DNA from: a virus
Taxonomy: Duplodnaviria > Caudoviricetes
Length of the DNA stretch: 64,000 nucleotides
Virus record (IMG/VR): IMGVR_UViG_3300025389_001023
Coordinates: 1 to 64,000 of that record
Strand: one strand, 5' to 3'
In this document: in pieces, positions 2,736 through 57,831 of the stretch
Layout: each line of letters opens with the position of its first letter
How positions within the stretch are numbered: position 1 is the stretch's first letter
Notes under the pieces: generated by a model
Seen by the model: the letters and a program-made list of their open reading frames with translations, nothing else
Told to the model about the DNA's origin: nothing
Database searches by the model: none
Program-made: the position numbers and the translations under genes

Positions 2736-5700
2736 TTATCCTAAGTACACAACTGACCAGTTGTCATTGCTATCAAAAATAAGTGAACCAACAGCTATTT
2801 TAAGTGTAAGTGTGTCCCCTGCCGCAAGTTTTGAAACTGTACTTACACCAAAGTGATTAATACTAGGGTTGGCACCTGATTCCCACATAATTTGATTTAC
2901 ATTACCTGAACCATAGTTTTTGATAACGATTGCCTGTGCGCTTGGTGAAGTATTATTTGCCACACGACAAACAAGATTTAATTGATATAATCCAGCAACG
3001 GGAGCAGTAAACACCCCTGTACTTGAATTTAAGTATCCGCCTTGATTATAATCAACAGTCCAATTGTTAGCATTTAATATACCGTTGGTATTGGTTGTAG
3101 TACTCCAGATTGTTGAACTACTGCCGTATACTCTAAATGCCGGACGATTAGGAGTAATGACACCTGCAGAACCGCTAGCGGTTATATTACCGCTGACATT
3201 CAACGTATTACCAAAAACAGCAGGTGTCGTGCTTGTGACAATAAGTTGACCTGTACCATCAGGATTAATTGTGATGTTACCGTTTGAACCAGCGACACTA
3301 CCTAATGTAGTGTTAGCAGAGAATACTAAATCTCCGTTTACAGGTAACGTAAAATTACCAGTGTTGTCAAACACATAGTTATAACTACCAGCGACTAATG
3401 TTACGTTTGGAGTTGTACCTGTTACATTGCCAACTAAACTTACATTAACACCTGTTAACTGACTACCGTTACCTATAAAGTAGTTAGCACTAATATTAGC
3501 ACTTACATTGGCATTACCTACAATATTAACATTACCTGTACCATCTGGATCAATATTGATGTTAGCGTTACTACCGTTTGTAGAACTAATATTTTTACCA
3601 GCAGCCATTACAATATTGCCGCCTGGTGTTATGTTACCATATGTTCCAATACCAGCGGCTGTAACAGCCAATGCCTGTACAGGAACACCGCTGACATTAT
3701 TATAGATTACAGTTGAAGCACTACTATAAATTCTTGTGGTTGATGTTGGTCCTGCGTTAGATGCTATTGTTAATGTTCCACCAGAAGTTGGATTGATGAT
3801 ATTAGCGTAAGCACCGTTTGCAACAATGTTGCCATTAATAACTACTGCACCGGTACCATCTGGGTCAATATTTATGTTAGCGTTACTGCCTGAAACTGAT
3901 GTAATAACTGATGAACTTGCTAACATTAAATTACCACCAATGTTAGCATTGCCTGCTGTAATATTACCTGTTGTAGTAATAGTGTTGCTACCATAACTCG
4001 CTAACAATGTTACAACATTACTGTCACTATAATTACCACTGATTGATACTTGTGTGCCATTAGCATAGTTTATAGCAAACGTGTTACCTGGTAATGTTAG
4101 ATTACCAGTATTATCAAAAATCCAAGAGTATAATGGGTCTATGCCAGTGTTTGTATGAATAGCTACATTAGTAAGACCTTGAATGGTTGTATGAGAGTTT
4201 GCAAACATCTCAATACCATTGTGGTTTAGATCCTCAGCGTATAAGCCTACGAAATCTTGATATGTATACATACCGCCGCCATTACCGGTGCCCTTCAACA
4301 ATCCAAAACCATATGTAGAATCAACTCCGAATTCCCATTGACCACTATTACCATTGCCATTATTACTGTTGACAATGATGTTACCTGTATTTGCTAACTT
4401 AACATATAAATCATCACTACCAAAATATAACTCAGTATCATACAAGTTACCTGATGTCAAATGTAAATGATTGTTGTCACCACCGGCAGTTGGATAAATT
4501 AATAATTGTTGATTAGCATATAAACCACCTGATGGCGTAAGTGAAATTGTGTTACCTGATAAACCATCAACCGGTATATTTGTCTCACTAATAACGCCGT
4601 TACGTGGTAGAGTTAAATTACCCGCCATGTCAAATTTGAATTCAGGACCCATAGCAAAGTTAATAGTAACATTGCTTGTATTAAGATTAACACCAGAACC
4701 AGGTGCAGTATTTCCTGAACCTAATCCTAATGTGGTATTGTTACCTAATATTACTCCTGGAGTTGTTAAAACACCATCGCTACTAAATATCCATTTATTT
4801 TCTGTACCAGCTTTATTAGAATGAATTACAACATTAGTGCCGGCACTTAAATCAGTATTACTATCTGTGATGGAGAATCTATCATTGCCATCTTGTTTAA
4901 CATAGAAGTTGCTATTAGCACTCAATGTCATGTTTAGCCCGCCGTCTACTTTAATGACACCGTTAATATCTGTCCCGTTACTACTGAATGTAATACTTCC
5001 ATTATCACTAGCCGGTACAGTTAGTACGTTGGATGTTACAACACGACCATCACCATAAATACTAATACCGTGTAAATCATCTGGTCCAATAGATACTGCG
5101 ACTACATTAGCATTGCCCGAATAATAGCCGTTATAAATTTGTAGTGCTTCACTAGTTGGGCCGTTGATACTGCCAGGAACATTGATGTATGCTGGGCTTG
5201 CACCACCATATGTTGGATTAATAACAATGTCACTACCATCACTAACACTTATTGTACTGGTGTTACTAGTTGGATTAGGGAACACAAAGTTGGCAATATA
5301 ACCACCTAATTGTGCTTGTGCTCCATTAGCATAGTTAATTGAGAATGTATTACCGGGTAATGTTAAGTTACCATACCCATCAAATGTCCAAATACCGCCG
5401 GGTAGTTCGTATGCGCCTGTATAAATTACTACGTTACAATCAGAAGTACCTACAGAGATAGTTGAGGGGAAACTAGAACTTTGTATATTACCACCTGTTA
5501 TTAAGTCGCCGCTGTTATTAAAAGTCCATGAACCAATTATTGTATTTCCGGTACTAATAGTAGTGTTACCACTTGCTATGTTAATACCACCATCTGTTAG
5601 TGAACCCATGAATGCGTTTGCACCATAGACTTCTAATATGTATGCACCTGGATTGGCTACAAAGTTTGCACCAGTGATTGCAACATTGCCGCCGTCAAAA

Positions 5701-6362
5701 GTAAAAGAATCGCTACCTGCAAATGAACCATTATGATTAAATTGAATCTCTGTAGTATTACCACCGGGTGAGGCATTGCCACCTGATACTGTCGCCCAAC
5801 TTAATTGAGCACCGTTAGTAGTTAAATACTTGTTACTATTACCGGATACCGCTGGGAATTCAGGGCCAGTATAAGCACTATGTTGAACACTTCCACCAGG
5901 GAATGTAATTTCTCCACCTACACCAAATGTCCATACTGAATCAGAGTCGCTAATACTAACAACAAAATTACCACCAACTCCGTCTATATATGCTAATGAC
6001 GGTCCCTGTTGAATAGTATTTGAAGTACCACCTGACTGTGCTACCCAGCTTAAGTTACCTGCACCATCTGTACTTAGTACTTGGTCTGCTGAACCACCCG
6101 AAATCTTTAATGTGTTAACATTTAATGTACCAACACTTGTGATGTTAGGTTGTGCGGCATTTGTAACTGAGTATGCTAGATTAGATAAAAATGCGGGAGC
6201 AAAAGTAGTTCCGGCGCCTGTAAGTACAAAATTACCAAGATTACCTACATTTGTTTGGTCCGTTGTTGGGGTACCCATCATGTTAACTACTGGCACTAAT
6301 GTGTTTGCGTCTAAACTATTACCAATATCAGCTAATTGTGTTATTTTTATTTGTGATGTCAT
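2736..6362 (-). CDS. Long tail fibre/adhesin-like protein with C-terminal C1q-like domain
   Basis: 1208 aa, G/N/S/T-rich with internal repeats; C-terminal RPAFRV...GVFTAPVAGLYQ...LAAGDTL is C1q/TNF-like. Confidence 0.8.
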   Translation of the reverse strand: MTSQIKITQLADIGNSLDANTLVPVVNMMGTPTTDQTNVGNLGNFVLTGAGTTFAPAFLSNLAYSVTNAAQPNITSVGTLNVNTLKISGGSADQVLSTDGAGNLSWVAQSGGTSNTIQQGPSLAYIDGVGGNFVVSISDSDSVWTFGVGGEITFPGGSVQHSAYTGPEFPAVSGNSNKYLTTNGAQLSWATVSGGNASPGGNTTEIQFNHNGSFAGSDSFTFDGGNVAITGANFVANPGAYILEVYGANAFMGSLTDGGINIASGNTTISTGNTIIGSWTFNNSGDLITGGNIQSSSFPSTISVGTSDCNVVIYTGAYELPGGIWTFDGYGNLTLPGNTFSINYANGAQAQLGGYIANFVFPNPTSNTSTISVSDGSDIVINPTYGGASPAYINVPGSINGPTSEALQIYNGYYSGNANVVAVSIGPDDLHGISIYGDGRVVTSNVLTVPASDNGSITFSSNGTDINGVIKVDGGLNMTLSANSNFYVKQDGNDRFSITDSNTDLSAGTNVVIHSNKAGTENKWIFSSDGVLTTPGVILGNNTTLGLGSGNTAPGSGVNLNTSNVTINFAMGPEFKFDMAGNLTLPRNGVISETNIPVDGLSGNTISLTPSGGLYANQQLLIYPTAGGDNNHLHLTSGNLYDTELYFGSDDLYVKLANTGNIIVNSNNGNGNSGQWEFGVDSTYGFGLLKGTGNGGGMYTYQDFVGLYAEDLNHNGIEMFANSHTTIQGLTNVAIHTNTGIDPLYSWIFDNTGNLTLPGNTFAINYANGTQVSISGNYSDSNVVTLLASYGSNTITTTGNITAGNANIGGNLMLASSSVITSVSGSNANINIDPDGTGAVVINGNIVANGAYANIINPTSGGTLTIASNAGPTSTTRIYSSASTVIYNNVSGVPVQALAVTAAGIGTYGNITPGGNIVMAAGKNISSTNGSNANINIDPDGTGNVNIVGNANVSANISANYFIGNGSQLTGVNVSLVGNVTGTTPNVTLVAGSYNYVFDNTGNFTLPVNGDLVFSANTTLGSVAGSNGNITINPDGTGQLIVTSTTPAVFGNTLNVSGNITASGSAGVITPNRPAFRVYGSSSTIWSTTTNTNGILNANNWTVDYNQGGYLNSSTGVFTAPVAGLYQLNLVCRVANNTSPSAQAIVIKNYGSGNVNQIMWESGANPSINHFGVSTVSKLAAGDTLTLKIAVGSLIFDSNDNWSVVYLG

Positions 6363-30742: not shown

Positions 30743-30964
30743 TTAAAATAGTTTTGGTGGAAGTTGCTGACTACGCAAGTGTTTCTTCCATCTACTCTTT
30801 GCTTGACCTCTAGCAATTTTTCTTTTTGTAGTTGGTTTAACGTACTGTTGGCGGTCACGGACTTCTTGTAGCAAATTTGAATCTGCTATCTTCTTTTTGA
30901 ATTTACGTAATGCTTTTTCAACATTTCCGTCTTGTACTATTACTTTTCTGCCTTTTAATATCAT
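30743..30964 (-). CDS. rpsU: Ribosomal protein bS21
   Basis: NVEKALRKFKKK...EVRDRQQYVKPTTKRK. Confidence 0.92.
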   Translation of the reverse strand: MILKGRKVIVQDGNVEKALRKFKKKIADSNLLQEVRDRQQYVKPTTKRKIARGQAKSRWKKHLRSQQLPPKLF

Positions 30965-32169
30965 AATATAGATTTTGGTTCCAAAACTAAGTTTCGAGTA
31001 ATATTTATCTGTTTTATGTTATTTTCTCTATAACTTCTAGTATTAAACATATGAGGCATTAACACTCGTTCAATTTCAGTATGTAACCCACGTGCACCTG
31101 TTTTTAGTGTTAAACAATTCTCGACAATTTGGTCTAGTGCTTCATCTTCAAAATTTAATTCAATATTGTCAATAGATAACAGATATTTGTATTGGTCAAT
31201 ATAACTATTCTTAACATCAACTAATACACTTTTAAGTTGATCTTTGGTTAATTCACTAATGCTAACTGTTGTTGTAAAACGACCGATAAATTCTGGAATC
31301 ATGCCAAACTTAACTAAGTCATCAGGTGTAGTTAATGCTAAATCACCCTCTTTTTTATTATCATGTACCTGTGCATTAAAACCAATACTAGTACCATTCA
31401 ATCGTTTATTCAAGACCTCTTTTAATCCTACAAAGGCTCCGCCTGCAATAAACAATATATTCTTTGTGTTGACTTCTAACATATCACCACCGGGGTGTTT
31501 ACGCCCACCACCGTTTGGTATGCGGCAAATAGTTCCCTCAACCAATTTAAGCAATGCTTGTTGTACACCCTCACCGCTTACATCACGTGTGATGCTTGTG
31601 CTTTCACTTTTACGTGCAATCTTATCAATCTCGTCAATAAATACGATCCCGCGTTCAGCAAGTTTAGCATCACCATTAGCGGCATTGACCAACATTGATA
31701 TCATACTTTCAGCATCGTCACCCACGTAACCTGCTTCTGTTAAACTTGTAGCATCAGCAACTACAAAAGGCACTTCAAGATATTTTGCTACTGTTTTTGC
31801 TAATAGTGTTTTACCACTACCAGTTGGACCAATCAATAATACATTACCTTTTTGAATTTCTAAATCTTTAGGCGGGTGTGTAATTCGCTTATAGTGATTA
31901 GCAATAGCAACACTTAATATTGTTTTTGCATTGTCTTGGCCAATTACATGCAAGTCTAAAAAATCCTTGATTGTACAAGGATCATATTTGACATTAAGTT
32001 CTTGTTTAGTTTCTACATCCTCAGCAACTGATTCTTCTTCCATTAAGTGTAGACATAAATCAATACATTCGCTACAGATGGCTACATCATCTCCAACAAT
32101 TAATTTTTTTACTTTGTCTTTGTGATTGTTGCAAAAGGAGCAGTGGTTAAGTTGTTTTTCAATTGTCAT
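30961..32169 (-). CDS. clpX: ATP-dependent Clp protease ATP-binding subunit ClpX
   Basis: CSFC..CSECIDLC zinc domain, GPTGSGKT, EAGYVG, DEIDK, RKHP, IGF loop, GARGL. Confidence 0.97.
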   Translation of the reverse strand: MTIEKQLNHCSFCNNHKDKVKKLIVGDDVAICSECIDLCLHLMEEESVAEDVETKQELNVKYDPCTIKDFLDLHVIGQDNAKTILSVAIANHYKRITHPPKDLEIQKGNVLLIGPTGSGKTLLAKTVAKYLEVPFVVADATSLTEAGYVGDDAESMISMLVNAANGDAKLAERGIVFIDEIDKIARKSESTSITRDVSGEGVQQALLKLVEGTICRIPNGGGRKHPGGDMLEVNTKNILFIAGGAFVGLKEVLNKRLNGTSIGFNAQVHDNKKEGDLALTTPDDLVKFGMIPEFIGRFTTTVSISELTKDQLKSVLVDVKNSYIDQYKYLLSIDNIELNFEDEALDQIVENCLTLKTGARGLHTEIERVLMPHMFNTRSYRENNIKQINITRNLVLEPKSIL

Positions 32170-35804: not shown

Positions 35805-36658
35805 TATTTTTTAGTCTTTTCTGAAAACATTTCATTTAGAATACGATTTTGTTCTTCAATTTCTTCATCAGTGGGTGGCTCACCTTCGTATTCAGCGTTA
35901 CCCTGGTCTTCTTCGGATAACATTTCAAATTCACGTTTGAGTTCTTCAAGTGCCTCTTCTAATTCTTTAGTTTTTTGTTCATCATCTTCACGGTTATCCA
36001 TATCGACCCAACCCTCACCGCAATGTGGGCATATATACTGACCATCCATTTCAATCAAGTCTTCTTGTGCTACAACTTTATCACAGCTATAGCAAGATTC
36101 ACCTTCAAGGTTTTCTTCTACGTCTATTGCCGCCCAACGTGCCTCACGTTCCAAACGTTCTTTTTCTTTCTGAACACCTTCTTCAGTCAATTCAGTATCA
36201 CTATCACACATTGGACAAACATCTTTTGTGATATCTGATTCTTCTTCGGAACTATAGTAATCTTCAATTACAGTACCATCTTCACGCAAATGTTGTGTTA
36301 GTGTTTGCCAACTCTTACCTTCCCAACGACACTTAGTACACTTATGTGTAGAAGGGGTGTCTTCGGGAGCAGTATGATAACTGTCCTCATCGCCGTATTC
36401 ATAGGTAACCTCGTACCCGCCTTTGCGGTCAGTCCAACAATCATCGTATTGAAAGTCCCATTCAATATCAACATCATTATTCCAGGCCTCATCGATAATT
36501 TCTTCAATATCGGCTTCACCGTTTTCAAGTTGTTCTAATAAACTAGCGATTTCATCTTCATCATAGTCAGGGTAGATTTCGTTGAGGATGTCTTCATTAA
36601 GTTCATATGTGTATTGTCTATCAACTTGATGCCATTCATGTTTTACAATAGTTACCAT
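35804..36658 (-). CDS. Acidic Zn-ribbon protein
   Basis: D/E-rich; CTKC, CPMC, CYSC and CPHC. Confidence 0.7.
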   Translation of the reverse strand: MVTIVKHEWHQVDRQYTYELNEDILNEIYPDYDEDEIASLLEQLENGEADIEEIIDEAWNNDVDIEWDFQYDDCWTDRKGGYEVTYEYGDEDSYHTAPEDTPSTHKCTKCRWEGKSWQTLTQHLREDGTVIEDYYSSEEESDITKDVCPMCDSDTELTEEGVQKEKERLEREARWAAIDVEENLEGESCYSCDKVVAQEDLIEMDGQYICPHCGEGWVDMDNREDDEQKTKELEEALEELKREFEMLSEEDQGNAEYEGEPPTDEEIEEQNRILNEMFSEKTKK

Positions 36659-36794
36659 GGATACTTTCCTTAAAAATTATATTATATATTGTTTTATAGC
36701 AAAATCAAAAGAAATAGGATAAATGCCATGATCGGATGACCAAATAATAGAAAAAATATTATGGCCATTGTGCCATAAAATGCACGGTCATCAC

Positions 36795-36992
36795 TCATAA
36801 TTCAACTCCAAAATGTTTTCGAATAGCCCTGCCTGCCGTGTCCCAATCTTCGCCGGCAATATCAGCACACTCACGTATAATCAGTTCAGCAAATTTTTTG
36901 TTATATTCTTTTATCCAATCCTCAACGCCCAAGGTATCTGTTGGGATACTTTTGGCAGCTTGTTCGGAAAATTCTTGAATTATGTCGTTCAT
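36795..36992 (-). CDS. MNE...KFAELI...HFGVE family protein
   Basis: KKFAELIIREC...IRKHFGVEL. Confidence 0.75.
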   Translation of the reverse strand: MNDIIQEFSEQAAKSIPTDTLGVEDWIKEYNKKFAELIIRECADIAGEDWDTAGRAIRKHFGVEL

Positions 36993-37216
36993 ATAATTCT
37001 TCCCAATCCACAGTAAATTAATTGATCCAATTCATATTGATAGTCTAAACCATTCCTACGCTTATGATAAATGGTAACAAGTAATTCTGTGGTAATTGAC
37101 CTATCAACAAGGCCAAGACCCCGAAGTTCCATTTCGTCTAAAATTTCCTCATCATCAAAGTCTGCTAAATCAACATCGATTTCGACTTCTTTATAAACAG
37201 ATTGATATCTACTCAT
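36989..37216 (-). CDS. Hypothetical protein (array cargo)
   Basis: ATGA-coupled to both neighbours. Confidence 0.65.
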   Translation of the reverse strand: MSRYQSVYKEVEIDVDLADFDDEEILDEMELRGLGLVDRSITTELLVTIYHKRRNGLDYQYELDQLIYCGLGRII

Positions 37217-37434
37217 TCTTCAACTCCAAAATGTGCTCGAATAAATTTACTCACATAAGAATCCATGTCTGCTCGTTCTACTTCATCAGCAATATTACAA
37301 CATTCTTGAACCAGCAACTCGGCAAACTCTCTTAACACCTCAGTAACATTTGATTCTGGAGCAAGTATTTCACGCCTACTTTCAGAAACATAAAAGCCGG
37401 CTTGTTCGGCAAGTGTGTTAAATCGTTCGTTCAT
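37213..37434 (-). CDS. MNE...FAEL...HFGVEE family protein
   Basis: MNERF..LAEQAG...FAELLVQEC...HFGVEE. Confidence 0.8.
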   Translation of the reverse strand: MNERFNTLAEQAGFYVSESRREILAPESNVTEVLREFAELLVQECCNIADEVERADMDSYVSKFIRAHFGVEE

Positions 37435-37547
37435 CTGCCATCCTTAGCATCATTATAACCAATCAGATAACCCATCACCAATGCAAACAACATACCCGCA
37501 ATAGCAATGGCTGTGCCAATGATTGGATCCCAATTAAATTCATTCAT
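37431..37547 (-). CDS. Small single-TM protein (array cargo)
   Basis: MNEFNWDPIIGTAIAIAGMLFALVMGYLIGY; likely start at 37547. Confidence 0.55.
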   Translation of the reverse strand: MNEFNWDPIIGTAIAIAGMLFALVMGYLIGYNDAKDGR

Positions 37548-37716
37548 GCCGGTCCTTTTCCCAAGGGGTAAATTCGTATCTGTAAATTGGTAACAGGCCA
37601 AACAACCATGTACCAACCTTTACTTGTTTTAATTCTCTATGCTCAACTTCGGGCCGGTATTGGTCTGGGGTGTTCCTGATTCTCGTGAAGTCATCTTGGA
37701 AATTTGTTAGGTTCAT
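37540..37716 (-). CDS. Small hypothetical protein (array cargo)
   Basis: 58-aa ORF MNLTNFQDD...PWEKDRHE read manually; ATGA-coupled to the upstream gene. Confidence 0.55.
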   Translation of the reverse strand: MNLTNFQDDFTRIRNTPDQYRPEVEHRELKQVKVGTWLFGLLPIYRYEFTPWEKDRHE

Positions 37717-37961
37717 TGTTCGACTCCGAAATGTTCTCTAATTCCACTAATCATCTTTTCACAAGCACGGTCATACCCAATAACATAATGTGTATCAGTT
37801 GCTGGTTCCCCTCTAACCTCAAAGGCAATGTCTAAACAGTCTCTGACAATCAACTCGGCGAACTTTTGTTGTGCCGGAGTTAATGTAGTCCTGTCGAAGC
37901 CATTATACTCTGCGACAATCAGACCAGCCTGTACCGCAAGTTGTGTAAATCGTTCGTTCAT
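37713..37961 (-). CDS. MNER...KFAELIV...HFGVE family protein
   Basis: Family motifs present. Confidence 0.8.
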   Translation of the reverse strand: MNERFTQLAVQAGLIVAEYNGFDRTTLTPAQQKFAELIVRDCLDIAFEVRGEPATDTHYVIGYDRACEKMISGIREHFGVEQ

Positions 37962-38197
37962 TCTTCAACTCCGAAATGTTCTTTAATTGCTGTTTTAATA
38001 CTTTCTGCCTTGACCCACATTCCCATATCATACTCGTCATGCTCATCATCGTTAGATTCATGTTCACAAAATTTGACACATTCTAGCACAATCAACTCGG
38101 CGAACTTTTCTTTATTGAAATTATCATAACTTACTCCCCACTTATGTTCTTCGATAGTAGTGGCTTGCTTAACAAGTTCTCGAATTCGTTCGTTCAT
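37958..38197 (-). CDS. MNER...KFAELIV...HFGVEE family protein
   Basis: Family motifs present. Confidence 0.8.
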   Translation of the reverse strand: MNERIRELVKQATTIEEHKWGVSYDNFNKEKFAELIVLECVKFCEHESNDDEHDEYDMGMWVKAESIKTAIKEHFGVEE

Positions 38198-38200
38198 TCT

Positions 38201-38314
38201 TCAACTCCGAAATGTTCTTTTAAGTATATTACTAATGCCAACAAATACAAAAATAATTGGCAAAACTAATAAACCAATAACGACCATCCACCAAGGCATA
38301 TCTCGTTCGTTCAT
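38201..38314 (-). CDS. 37-aa single-TM peptide between two repeats
   Basis: MNERDMPWWMVVIGLLVLPIIFVFVGISNILKRTFRS read manually. Confidence 0.6.
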   Translation of the reverse strand: MNERDMPWWMVVIGLLVLPIIFVFVGISNILKRTFRS

Positions 38315-38571
38315 TCTTCAACTCCGAAATGTTGTTTAATCTGGTCAATACATTGAGAACCACCGTTAAGCCAAGTGTCAACTGATTTAGGAACAGGATC
38401 ACTAATAACTTGTTCACAACATCCAATACATTCTTTCACAATCAACTCGGCGAACTTTTCTTTGTCAAAATATTCTACTTGTTCTATGTAACCTTTACCT
38501 CTGTAACCTTCATGATTCATGGAGAGAGTTGAAGTAGCCTGTTCAGCAAGTTCTTTAATTCGTTCGTTCAT
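38311..38571 (-). CDS. MNER...KFAELIV...HFGVEE family protein
   Basis: Family motifs present. Confidence 0.8.
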   Translation of the reverse strand: MNERIKELAEQATSTLSMNHEGYRGKGYIEQVEYFDKEKFAELIVKECIGCCEQVISDPVPKSVDTWLNGGSQCIDQIKQHFGVEE

Positions 38572-38786
38572 TCTTCAACTCCGAAATGTGTTAAAATATT
38601 TCCACCAATCCACTCACACTTATTCTCATCCGCAAGGTCAGCAACTTTAGCACATTCCTTGACAATCAATTCGGCAAACTTTTCATCACGAATACGATTA
38701 TATCTCACAATCTCTCTAAGGTCAGGTTCTATAACCCTAGCTAACGCATCAGCTTGTTTGGTTAATTTATAAATTAGTTCATTCAT
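38568..38786 (-). CDS. MNE...KFAELIV...HFGVEE family protein
   Basis: Family motifs; coupled to the ligase stop. Confidence 0.8.
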   Translation of the reverse strand: MNELIYKLTKQADALARVIEPDLREIVRYNRIRDEKFAELIVKECAKVADLADENKCEWIGGNILTHFGVEE

Positions 38787-40129
38787 TTATCGTCCCTAAA
38801 TCTTACAAATCGAGGGAAACGCAAACTGTATGTACCATCTTGATTTTGCGTAATCACATCACACAAGATTTCAGCAGTACGACCAATAACACTATTGCTA
38901 TTAGCCCAATAGTCATCACGATCCTCGTCACTAAAGCCACTACCCACATTGACAGTAATTTCTTTACCATCATCAACGCCTTGACATACTAGTGCACCTA
39001 GACGACCTACATTTCGACCAGTCCCCTCTTCAACACCAATCACTTGTAGATCAACACTTAGTGTAGGTTTCCATTTCATCCAAAATGTATTACGCTTACA
39101 CTCGTAAGGTGCATCAACATTCTTAATCATAATACCTTCGAATCCTGCGTTAACATTATCTTTAGCATAACGCTCTAGTTGATTTTTACCTTCTGCGGTG
39201 TCTAAGTCAACCATGATGTGTGGCAGTAACTCAACATTAGGCATTGTATCAATAACAGGACGCATTGCCTCAAGCAAATTAATACGTTTGCTCAATTGTG
39301 CATTCCAATATCCTCTGCGAAAATCTTGTAATGGGATAATGTCAAAAATATTGAACACACTATCATCAGCCTGCACATCAGTTTTGCGGCGTGCTTGTCG
39401 CATGAGTTCTTGGAATGTATTGCCAATCACTTCACCGTCAAGTACAAAGCCATCGATTAGTCCACGACCTTGATCCGTACCACGTGTAGCTCTACAAATT
39501 TTGGCATAATTGTTTTCTACTTGTTCTTCAATGTGTCTAAAGTTTTCAAACACCTTACCATTGCGACTGTAACAAATTGTAGTCATGCCATTATCGCTAG
39601 GGATAACAACAAGCAATACACGAACACCATCTAGCTTAGGCTCTAGACGTTTAGTACCCTTCATCTCGGGGCGACCTTCACTATTGGTTGCAAGTTGACA
39701 ACCAAACACTGGAATCTCGTAATCAGTTTTTTTACAAATTTTATTGATAGTCTTGTCACTAATACCTGCACGTAAGTCACGGCGAATAACAGGAGCACAA
39801 AATGTATTCCATTCGTTACTATCAAAACGTTCACTCATTTCTTGGATAGCATCACGTGCGGCATGACCAGTTAACCCACGTTGACCTAACTCACTCAACA
39901 ACTGATTAAAGTCTTCCCAAGGATTTTCTGCATCAACAATGCCAACTGTATCAGGCACTTGTTTAACACCAAACGTCACATAAGGATTATAGCAAACTTT
40001 GGTTAATGTTAAAAAATTAATAGCATTTGTGCTACCAAGGACACTTGCCTCAAGCGCCTGTTTAAGTACATCTTCTTTGTGAAGCCTGCTATCACTTTCA
40101 TTTAATTTTTTAATCCAACTTGCTGACAT
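38783..40129 (-). CDS. lig: ATP-dependent DNA ligase
   Basis: EPKLDGVR, LDGE, FDII, EGIMIK, WMKWK, VGSGFSD, SLRFPRF..RDDK. Confidence 0.96.
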   Translation of the reverse strand: MSASWIKKLNESDSRLHKEDVLKQALEASVLGSTNAINFLTLTKVCYNPYVTFGVKQVPDTVGIVDAENPWEDFNQLLSELGQRGLTGHAARDAIQEMSERFDSNEWNTFCAPVIRRDLRAGISDKTINKICKKTDYEIPVFGCQLATNSEGRPEMKGTKRLEPKLDGVRVLLVVIPSDNGMTTICYSRNGKVFENFRHIEEQVENNYAKICRATRGTDQGRGLIDGFVLDGEVIGNTFQELMRQARRKTDVQADDSVFNIFDIIPLQDFRRGYWNAQLSKRINLLEAMRPVIDTMPNVELLPHIMVDLDTAEGKNQLERYAKDNVNAGFEGIMIKNVDAPYECKRNTFWMKWKPTLSVDLQVIGVEEGTGRNVGRLGALVCQGVDDGKEITVNVGSGFSDEDRDDYWANSNSVIGRTAEILCDVITQNQDGTYSLRFPRFVRFRDDK

Positions 40130-40138
40130 GAATATTCC

Positions 40139-40366
40139 TTAAATAGTTTTTTCTTTATTTTCTTTAAGACGATTGGCGCATTCTGTGATTACTTCTTCGG
40201 GTACATATTTGTATTCTTTAAGCATTGAACACCTATAGTCTATTGACACCACATCTGGATCGTCATCATCGTCATTGGTAAAAGAAATAGAATCTGTTTT
40301 GGTCCAAAACAGTAATACTATTAATATTAGTATTACAAATAATATTGTTTTTTTATCATCATTCAT
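40139..40366 (-). CDS. Small membrane-anchored protein
   Basis: Start MNDDKK; transmembrane helix then an acidic, Cys-containing domain. Confidence 0.55.
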   Translation of the reverse strand: MNDDKKTILFVILILIVLLFWTKTDSISFTNDDDDDPDVVSIDYRCSMLKEYKYVPEEVITECANRLKENKEKTI

Positions 40367-57570: not shown

Positions 57571-57831
57571 TTAATTATATTTTATATTAAACTTATCTTT
57601 AATGCTTTTTACACAACGTTGTTTGGTTCCTTCAATCATGCTTTTATCATAGGTTGTGTATGTTAACTCTGTTACCAGTGTTTCATTTATAGCATCAATA
57701 CATTCTTTGATAAGCAATTCTGCAAAATCTTGTAATTTTTTATCACTAACATCTTCGCCATAAAAATCACCGTCATCAGCTACACCATAAAAGCCTGCTC
57801 GTTCACCTAATTGTTTAATTTTTTCATTCAT
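57571..57831 (-). CDS. Orphan member of the MNE...FAELLI..EC family
   Basis: MNEKIKQLGERAG...FAELLIKEC...IKDKFNI. Confidence 0.7.
   Translation of the reverse strand: MNEKIKQLGERAGFYGVADDGDFYGEDVSDKKLQDFAELLIKECIDAINETLVTELTYTTYDKSMIEGTKQRCVKSIKDKFNIKYN

Follow-up and report, generated by a model that had tools for sequence, protein, structure and literature searches.

In T4-type phages, an element that combines a sigma-70-like early promoter with a terminator stem-loop (the PeSL) is found in intergenic regions (Arbiol et al. 2010, PMC2839356; Comeau et al. 2014, PMC4122927). PeSLs are repeated between small non-essential ORFs of a hyperplastic region, where they allow exchange between sequences that are otherwise unrelated, and ORFs are thereby gained, lost, or substituted in modular fashion (PMC2839356, PMC4122927). 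We describe a phage locus in which a short conserved regulatory repeat also lies between small ORFs and in which unrelated ORFs are exchanged at this repeat between related phages. Unlike the PeSLs, this repeat (the junction) has neither a promoter nor a terminator stem-loop. Instead, it is translational (an SD, a spacer, and an ATGA), and it lies inside coding sequence, where it encodes the C-terminal end of one protein and the N-terminal end of the protein that follows. Another difference from the PeSLs is that a second conserved block, within the genes of the main protein family at this locus, permits swaps of half-genes.

Three other arrangements are also similar. Overlapping stop and start codons (ATGA), with an SD inside the upstream gene, couple genes in many bacterial and phage operons. 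As in those operons, the ATG of the junction overlaps the TGA of the upstream gene and is preceded by an SD at a distance of 7 nt, and eleven genes follow each other without gaps. The junction differs from them in that the entire coupling block (about 15-29 nt) recurs as a module, with invariant nucleotides, that is common to unrelated genes, in that a second frame also contains a stop, and in that the block coincides with recombination breakpoints. In the modular theory of lambdoid phages, Susskind and Botstein reportedly proposed in 1978 that short boundary homologies ("linkers") guide module exchange; lambdoid boundary homologies are few and disputed. The locus resembles this model in having short homologies at gene boundaries and module exchange between related phages, but the junction is dense (7 copies in 2 kb), its conservation extends to the codon level over hundreds of copies, and one cassette is seen in many contexts. 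Finally, as in integrons, small promoterless co-oriented units of unrelated function are separated by a repeated element. Unlike integrons, the junction has no attC-type imperfect inverted repeat or hairpin and the breakpoints vary, and we found no match to tyrosine integrases (PF00589) in the 114-kb fragment of this genome (about 30% of the total).

An array of tiny genes and the repeat that joins them

The window that we analyzed covers the first 64 kb of an IMG/VR virus contig of 114.5 kb. CheckV estimates that this contig is about 30% complete, so the source, a large uncultured phage, is probably jumbo-sized. The array lies directly downstream of the gene for an ATP-dependent DNA ligase (38783-40129, minus strand), which is about 32-35% identical to the ligases of SPO1-like phages. 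It comprises eleven tiny genes, all on the minus strand (36694-38786) and with no intergenic gaps. Six of these are paralogs from one family (65-86 aa), interleaved with five unrelated small ORFs: TM37, a 58-aa ORF, a 38-aa membrane ORF, an acidic 75-aa ORF, and a 34-aa membrane ORF. When we compared the array to GenBank phages by megablast, we did not find a near-identical genome. In order along the minus strand, the genes and the features of TM37 are:

38568..38786, minus strand: 72-aa family paralog, first in the array; ATGA overlap with the DNA ligase gene
38311..38571, minus strand: 86-aa family paralog, a mosaic, upstream of TM37
38201..38314, minus strand: TM37, a 37-codon single-pass membrane mini-gene (predicted); ATG at 38312-38314, TGA at 38201-38203
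38215..38314, minus strand: interior of the TM37 cassette, 100 nt; right-hand breakpoint is the motif AAAAGAA
38218..38221, minus strand: run of four As that sets the frame of TM37 (a T-run on the plus strand), within the joint AAAAGAA
37958..38197, minus strand: 79-aa family paralog downstream of TM37; ATG at 38195-38197
37713..37961, minus strand: 82-aa family paralog, C-terminus HFGVEQ
37540..37716, minus strand: unrelated 58-aa cassette after a junction; 93-95% DNA identity with L005 and L085
37431..37547, minus strand: second membrane mini-gene, 38 aa
37213..37434, minus strand: 73-aa family paralog
36989..37216, minus strand: unrelated acidic 75-aa cassette after a junction
36795..36992, minus strand: 65-aa family paralog, C-terminus HFGVEL
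36694..36798, minus strand: third membrane mini-gene, 34 aa, the array's last gene

Elsewhere in the window, the phage encodes ClpX (with an AAA_2 domain and the ClpX zinc finger; 30961-32169, minus strand) as well as a protein of 1208 aa whose C-terminal domain is C1q-like (2736-6362, minus strand) and which is probably a fibre or receptor-binding protein.

The family (65-86 aa) is recognizable by its MNER start, its KFAELIV.EC core, and its HFGVEE end, and the array's paralogs are 33-49% identical to the 86-aa member. In a profile search, 7,989 of the 8,000 candidates that were scored had E ≤ 0.001, which means that the search was saturated and the family is very large, and its distribution is viral. 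The family has no match in Pfam or PHROGs, and none of ten array proteins gave a significant match to either. Nor did the 86-aa paralog have a tblastn match among 50,697 GenBank phage records, and no relevant paper turned up when we searched the literature for HFGVEE and KFAELIV. An AlphaFold2 model of the 86-aa protein (from 68 sequences; pLDDT 85) has the topology helix, hairpin, helix, helix. Foldseek found no match to this model in PDB at E ≤ 0.001; a weak resemblance to the winged helix of TFIIE (TM 0.50) is a lead only. We also noticed a lone family member outside of the array, near 57726 of the window (minus strand; core ..DFAELLIKEC..), among deazaguanine and glycosyltransferase genes.

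The 28-nt junction has four exact copies on the minus strand (37951-37978, 38187-38214, 38304-38331, and 38561-38588), with none expected in shuffled sequences. Each reaches 29 nt by one more common base, and there are diverged copies near 36793, 37211, and 37711, for a total of 7 copies in 2 kb. The two copies on either side of TM37 are:

38303..38331, minus strand: upstream copy, with the HFGVEE end of the 86-aa paralog, SD GGAG at 38322-38325, and the MNER codons of TM37
38186..38214, minus strand: downstream copy, same sequence, with SD GGAG at 38205-38208 and the ATG (38195-38197) of the 79-aa paralog

The order of elements is the HFGVEE codons, the SD (GGAG, within the G-V codons), a 7-nt spacer, the ATGA stop/start overlap, and the N-E-R codons. 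In its extended form, the SD is GGAGTTGA, which agrees with the complement of the extended anti-SD, GGAGGTGA, at 7 of 8 positions, and this resemblance explains the G-V-E codons of the junction. Because the SD is 7 nt from the ATG and inside the upstream ORF, and because stop and start overlap in the family's frame, the junction appears by its anatomy to be a translational-coupling element. Two of the junction's three frames contain a stop, in each case no more than 10 nt from the following ATG, so ORFs that enter in either of these frames end beside the restart codon. In the frame that TM37 uses, the spacing is TGA, 3 nt, and then ATG. We expect that the whole array would be one transcript and that each gene would be translationally coupled to the next via the junction.

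Within 36400-40300, there were 14 promoter-like sites (13.6 expected), none of them within junction copies, and 2 terminator-like sites (1.9 expected), neither of them at a junction. Predicted RNA folds at the junction ranged from -4 to -7.5 kcal/mol, with z-scores from +0.40 to -0.48 for these folds and down to -0.74 overall, and none were significant. With no promoter, terminator, or RNA structure above chance, the junction is not a PeSL. By analogy, the best reading is that it would function like the PeSLs of T4 and have the same evolutionary role. (We also searched for a RegB-type endoribonuclease, which cuts at GGAG. There was no match, but the control genomes gave none either.)

Nucleotide-level conservation and use in two frames

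To examine codon usage, we collected family ORFs from 80 related viral loci by protein motif only, which gave 142 distinct ORFs. At the junction, the synonymous sites are almost invariant, often with non-preferred codons, and codons at the start and in the core are also biased. The backgrounds are from the same genes:

Junction Gly GGA: 141/142 (background 28%)
Junction Val GTT: 139/142 (background 40%)
Junction His CAT: 141/142 (background 73%)
Junction Glu GAA: 139/142 (background 77%)
Junction stop TGA: 123/124
Start Asn AAC: 87% (background 33%)
Start Arg CGA: 91% of Arg (background 18%)
Core Phe TTC: 81% (background 22%)
Core Ala GCC: 86% (background 22%)
Core Glu GAG: 84% (background 18%)
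Core Leu TTG: 86% (background 23%)

The binomial p-values are extremely small. They overstate the independence of the copies, which are related, but neither the sign nor the magnitude of the bias is in question. For the junction, selection for translation initiation could by itself account for the conservation, with no role in recombination. It does not account for the core block, whose conservation cannot be explained by an SD.

The core block (TTCG-CC-GAGTTGA-TTGTGAA-AGAATG, at 38428-38456 on the minus strand and in every family gene) itself resembles the junction (TTCG-GAGTTGA-AGAATGA). Relative to the junction, it has insertions of 2 nt and 7 nt, which sum to 9 nt and preserve the frame. 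The family gene may thus be an ancient fusion of two mini-cassettes, and this likeness might permit recombination between core and junction.

We then defined junctions by DNA only (GGAGTTGA, three bases, and ATG), which gave 218 distinct sites from about 90 related loci. Family ORFs entered the junction in the HFGVEE frame at 171 sites and in the other stop-containing frame at 4, while for unrelated ORFs the counts were 20 and 14; the remaining 9 of the 218 sites had no upstream ORF of at least 25 aa. The difference in frame use between family and unrelated ORFs is significant (Fisher p = 1.3e-9, or 3.4e-6 with the copies of TM37 collapsed). In a separate count, the third frame, which lacks a stop, was used at 2 of 204 sites. 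At these junctions, the unrelated proteins end in ..LGVEE, ..IGVEE, or ..YGVEE, or else in ..RS* or ..WS*. Two family genes (from L064 and L071) also end in ..RTFRS*.

A preliminary description of the window, made from its sequence, had suggested that the repeat is maintained as DNA or RNA, either as a recombination site or as a ribosome binding site. The near-invariance of the synonymous sites, along with the presence of the block after unrelated ORFs in two frames, agrees with the first part of this suggestion. As for the choice between roles, the evidence favors both.

Some related arrays contain variations on this theme. A zinc-ribbon-like ORF with CxxC motifs (L032:4223-4345) enters the junction in the third frame and reads on into the next gene; the same ORF in L019 and L080 has an in-frame end (..VGVEE or ..VGIEE). 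In L067 and L069 (4228-4737), a 170-aa protein of the T5orf172/MUG113 type (GIY-YIG-like) has the HFGVEE end and is followed by a standard junction. And in a family gene from L085 (2188-2439) and L089 (293-574), the junction's ATGA has become ATCA, and the ORF continues for 18 more codons to a second type of junction. This second type encodes ..YFGNNP and then has an ATGA overlap, and the same tail is found on an unrelated 50-aa ORF in L094.

TM37, a small ORF in many contexts

The preliminary description reported a 37-codon ORF (38201-38314) between two copies of the repeat, lacking the KFAELIV core and entering the downstream copy out of frame (ending in KRTFRS*) even though that copy is still identical. 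We see the same ORF at these coordinates, and both copies of the junction are exact. TM37 is not a member of the family: the KFAELIV.EC core is absent, the family's HMM gives no match, and there is no similarity to the interior of family genes. Its ATG is the one in the 38304-38331 copy, and it enters the 38187-38214 copy shifted by one base, so that it reads F-R-S and stops at a TGA (38201-38203) inside GTTGAAG, 3 nt ahead of the next gene's ATG.

What TM37 has in common with the family is its first four codons (MNER) and, out of frame, its last 14 nt. The ~14 nt ahead of the SD (AAAGAACATTTC) are the family's C-terminal coding sequence, read out of frame. Since the MNER codons and AAAGAACATTTC are derived from the family, the foreign part of the unit amounts to only about 75-80 nt. 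With this correction, the earlier proposal that foreign sequence can be captured between the repeats is supported, as the identical 100 nt is present in nine other contigs (see below).

TM37 has a charged N-terminus (MNERD, with E, R, and D), about 23 hydrophobic residues, and a tail with K, R, and R. Its best 19-residue window has a Kyte-Doolittle mean of 2.88. We predict that it would be translated into a small single-pass membrane protein. About twenty single-pass membrane mini-ORFs of 28-42 aa, TM37 among them, lie directly after junctions in related arrays. Searching 5.8 billion clusters and 1.8 billion representative proteins with the TM37 peptide, we found only three relatives (P0121-P0123). 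P0122 is a variant with V12I, I20F, and T34I, of which the first two are conservative. P0123 is a chimera that breaks inside the hydrophobic segment, and the remaining relative is the 50-aa form in L092. Peptides in L023 and L033 with the motif ..AGWWAVV.. have a similar layout. The one in L023 is about 33% identical to TM37, but is too short to establish homology; it and its closer relative in L033 are possibly related to TM37. The L023 peptide also ends out of frame (..FWS*), whereas the L033 peptide ends in frame (..FGVE*).

To find other contexts of the cassette, we looked in public contigs for exact occurrences of a 23-mer taken from within TM37. This matched three viral and seven metagenome contigs, which correspond to nine distinct contigs from eight other datasets. 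In every locus, 38215-38314 is 100% identical, and just outside the junction blocks the ungapped identity drops to 20-40%. The cassette has 5 distinct left flanks (four different family genes that end in HFGVEE, and the second junction type that ends in ..YFGNNP). On the right there are 8 distinct flanks: six are different family genes, one is an unrelated 103-aa gene, and one is the tail of a NUMOD3-type endonuclease. In the last of these (L092), the A-run is followed by a different sequence with no junction, and the K-R frame runs on into the endonuclease tail. The peptide is found elsewhere both with junctions, in varied contexts, and without a following junction. Short-read metagenome assemblers can mis-join at shared repeats, and some combinations of left and right flanks could be chimeric. 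However, each joint of a flank to the cassette fits within one read length, so at least 8 contexts must exist even if some of the contigs are chimeric. That the same 100-nt mini-gene lies beside at least 8 different neighbors implies that the repeat is conserved as DNA or RNA and is a site where small genes are swapped.

L005, from a close relative, has the same cassettes in another order, and TM37 is absent. When we searched for an empty site (the two flanks of TM37 joined directly), the sole match was in L095, where the right flank is perfect and the left flank matches for the last ~30 nt only. This is too short for a precise empty site, and we consider the locus to be another mosaic instead.

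These contexts also bear on whether the frame of TM37 is real. The preliminary description had flagged a T-run, which is at 38218-38221 on the plus strand, as a potential single-base error. Homopolymer runs are typical sites of sequencing or assembly error, and dropping one A from the coding strand would give an ATGA overlap and the ending ..NILKEHFGVEE*, similar to the first paralog's ..NILTHFGVEE. But a run of four is short for such an error, and the four-A run and the reading frame are the same in 10/10 loci (nine distinct contigs from eight other datasets), including L092, where no junction follows the run. (Three contigs have an ACA-to-ATA change in the junction, which does not affect the frame.) Out-of-frame ends also occur at sites that are not homopolymers, such as ERTFRS* in L064 and ..RS* in L044, L048, and L072. 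Given the recurrence in nine contigs, an isolated error in the homopolymer is very unlikely, and we put very little weight on the idea that the frame of TM37 is an artifact. Nor do all homologs end in HFGVEE, as the alternative in the preliminary description would require.

It is even less probable that the ribosome restores the family's frame by a programmed +1 frameshift at AAA-AGA, with tRNA-Lys slipping to give an HFGVEE-ended isoform. A-AAA-G does permit tRNA-Lys to re-pair in the +1 frame, and this motif is kept in all copies of the cassette and recurs in a family gene in L071. But AGA is the most used Arg codon here (28%), so no hungry-codon pause is expected, and no stimulatory SD lies upstream; the SD is downstream of the slip site, unlike in prfB. 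Also, the slippery run is absent from other out-of-frame ends (L064, L044, and L048), and the two products would differ in their last residues only. We rejected this site as a candidate for programmed frameshifting on the basis of the common AGA codon and the missing stimulator.

Instead, the out-of-frame end is best explained as the scar of a join at the DNA level, and not as a point indel. The string AAAGAA is common to the K-R codons of the peptide (AAA AGA A..) and the K-E-H codons of the family (AAA GAA CAT), and the chimera in L092 breaks at the same string as the 3' joint of TM37, which suggests a microhomology join that was blind to frame. At AAAAGAA, the codons for the peptide's basic tail (K-R) would have been joined to the 3' end of a family gene (K-E-H-F...).

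Another possibility is that TM37 is not a gene but a non-coding T-rich spacer or the relic of a deletion, whose open frame is incidental to its base composition. The unit is tiny, and an open frame of 37 codons in 114 nt is not improbable: we estimate that about 10-20% of random 100-nt stretches are open in a given frame. T-rich DNA yields hydrophobic peptides when translated, and the copies from our exact-word search are all identical, which leaves no pattern of substitutions to gauge coding constraint. Against this, TM37 fits exactly between a strong SD with its ATG and a stop that precedes the following ATG by 3 nt; its N-terminus is charged, its 23-residue core is hydrophobic, and its tail is basic; it is intact in 8 contexts; and it has neither similarity to the interior of family genes nor significant RNA structure. 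Also, the ~twenty comparable membrane mini-ORFs after junctions include two more in the window. We consider it unlikely that TM37 is a spacer or a relic.

We think that TM37 is probably a real mini-gene cassette and that the junction is probably a frame-tolerant stop/restart adaptor as well as a recombination joint for cassette shuffling. TM37 would use the adaptor's ATG and exit by the adaptor's second-frame stop. As the junction tolerates two entry frames, a captured ORF would be expressed from a ready-made SD and ATG and would still hand ribosomes on to the next gene.

Mosaic paralogs and the exchange of cassettes

The family genes are mosaic in structure, with half-gene modules whose breaks fall at conserved blocks. 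High-identity DNA matches between the array's genes and other loci stop at these blocks. For example, the N-terminal and C-terminal halves of the 86-aa gene have identities of 97% and 62% with a gene in L005, but of 50% and 93% with one in L008. Similarly, a gene in L005 matches the 79-aa gene at 100% in the N-terminal half and at 54% in the C-terminal half, and the N-terminal half of the 79-aa gene is 100% identical in genes from L005 and L095 whose C-terminal halves differ. The gene in L095 (3842-4081) combines the N-terminal half of the 79-aa paralog (100% over ~100 nt) with the C-terminal half of the window's 82-aa paralog. This appears to be the product expected from recombination or deletion between the core blocks of adjacent paralogs.

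These mosaics and the varied contexts of TM37 show that recombination has taken place. We propose that homologous or microhomology-mediated recombination would occur at the 29-nt junction, at start codons, at the core block of about 15-22 nt, and at short microhomologies. The units that are swapped would be half-genes and whole mini-genes, and the partners would be tandem paralogs or co-infecting relatives.

Alternatively, the cassettes might be moved by a dedicated enzyme, either a homing endonuclease or a site-specific recombinase of the integron type. Conserved sequences are the usual targets of homing endonucleases, and repair co-converts the flanks; remnants of a NUMOD3-type endonuclease adjoin the cassette in L092, and the array in L067/L069 includes a T5orf172/GIY-YIG-like gene with the HFGVEE end. 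However, the 114-kb fragment (about 30% of the genome) has no match to an endonuclease, an integrase (PF00589), RecA, or NUMOD3, and the junction lacks an attC-like hairpin. Furthermore, the breakpoints vary (the ATG, AAAAGAA, inside the junction, or, in P0123, inside the TM segment), so homology-guided exchange fits better than a fixed cleavage site. We think that movement by a dedicated enzyme is improbable and we favor general recombination. Because of the endonuclease remnants in related arrays (L092 and L067), double-strand breaks may aid this exchange.

The 50-aa form of the membrane peptide in L092 (24-176) has a tail that matches the C-terminal NUMOD3 motif of homing-endonuclease-type proteins. 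Among the proteins P0124-P0128, several short NUMOD3-only ORFs resemble endonuclease genes in decay, including one whose fusion partner is another TM segment.

More speculatively, the three conserved blocks (start codons, core, and junction) might be kept by selection for recombination competence, as a cassette-based generator of diversity. We consider this idea less likely than not. If it is true, then the scaffold would let jumbo phages reshuffle half-genes and mini-genes combinatorially, both within the array and between co-infecting relatives, and the frame-tolerant adaptor would ensure that a captured ORF is expressed without silencing its neighbors.

Modular shuffling at short conserved regulatory sequences is known; what is new here is that the sequence is translational and intragenic, not transcriptional and intergenic. 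This extends the idea of the PeSL to translational intragenic cassettes. The locus also brings to light a very large family of phage proteins that has no name in Pfam or PHROGs, and it carries a warning for annotation, as an SD can, as a by-product, give rise to a conserved C-terminal peptide like ..GVEE. For the question of how phages acquire and circulate tiny ORFan genes, we have one mini-gene of 100 nt that can be traced unchanged through at least 8 contexts and whose joint can be read. At the junction, gene expression (by coupling) and gene flux (by recombination) would be united in one short element.
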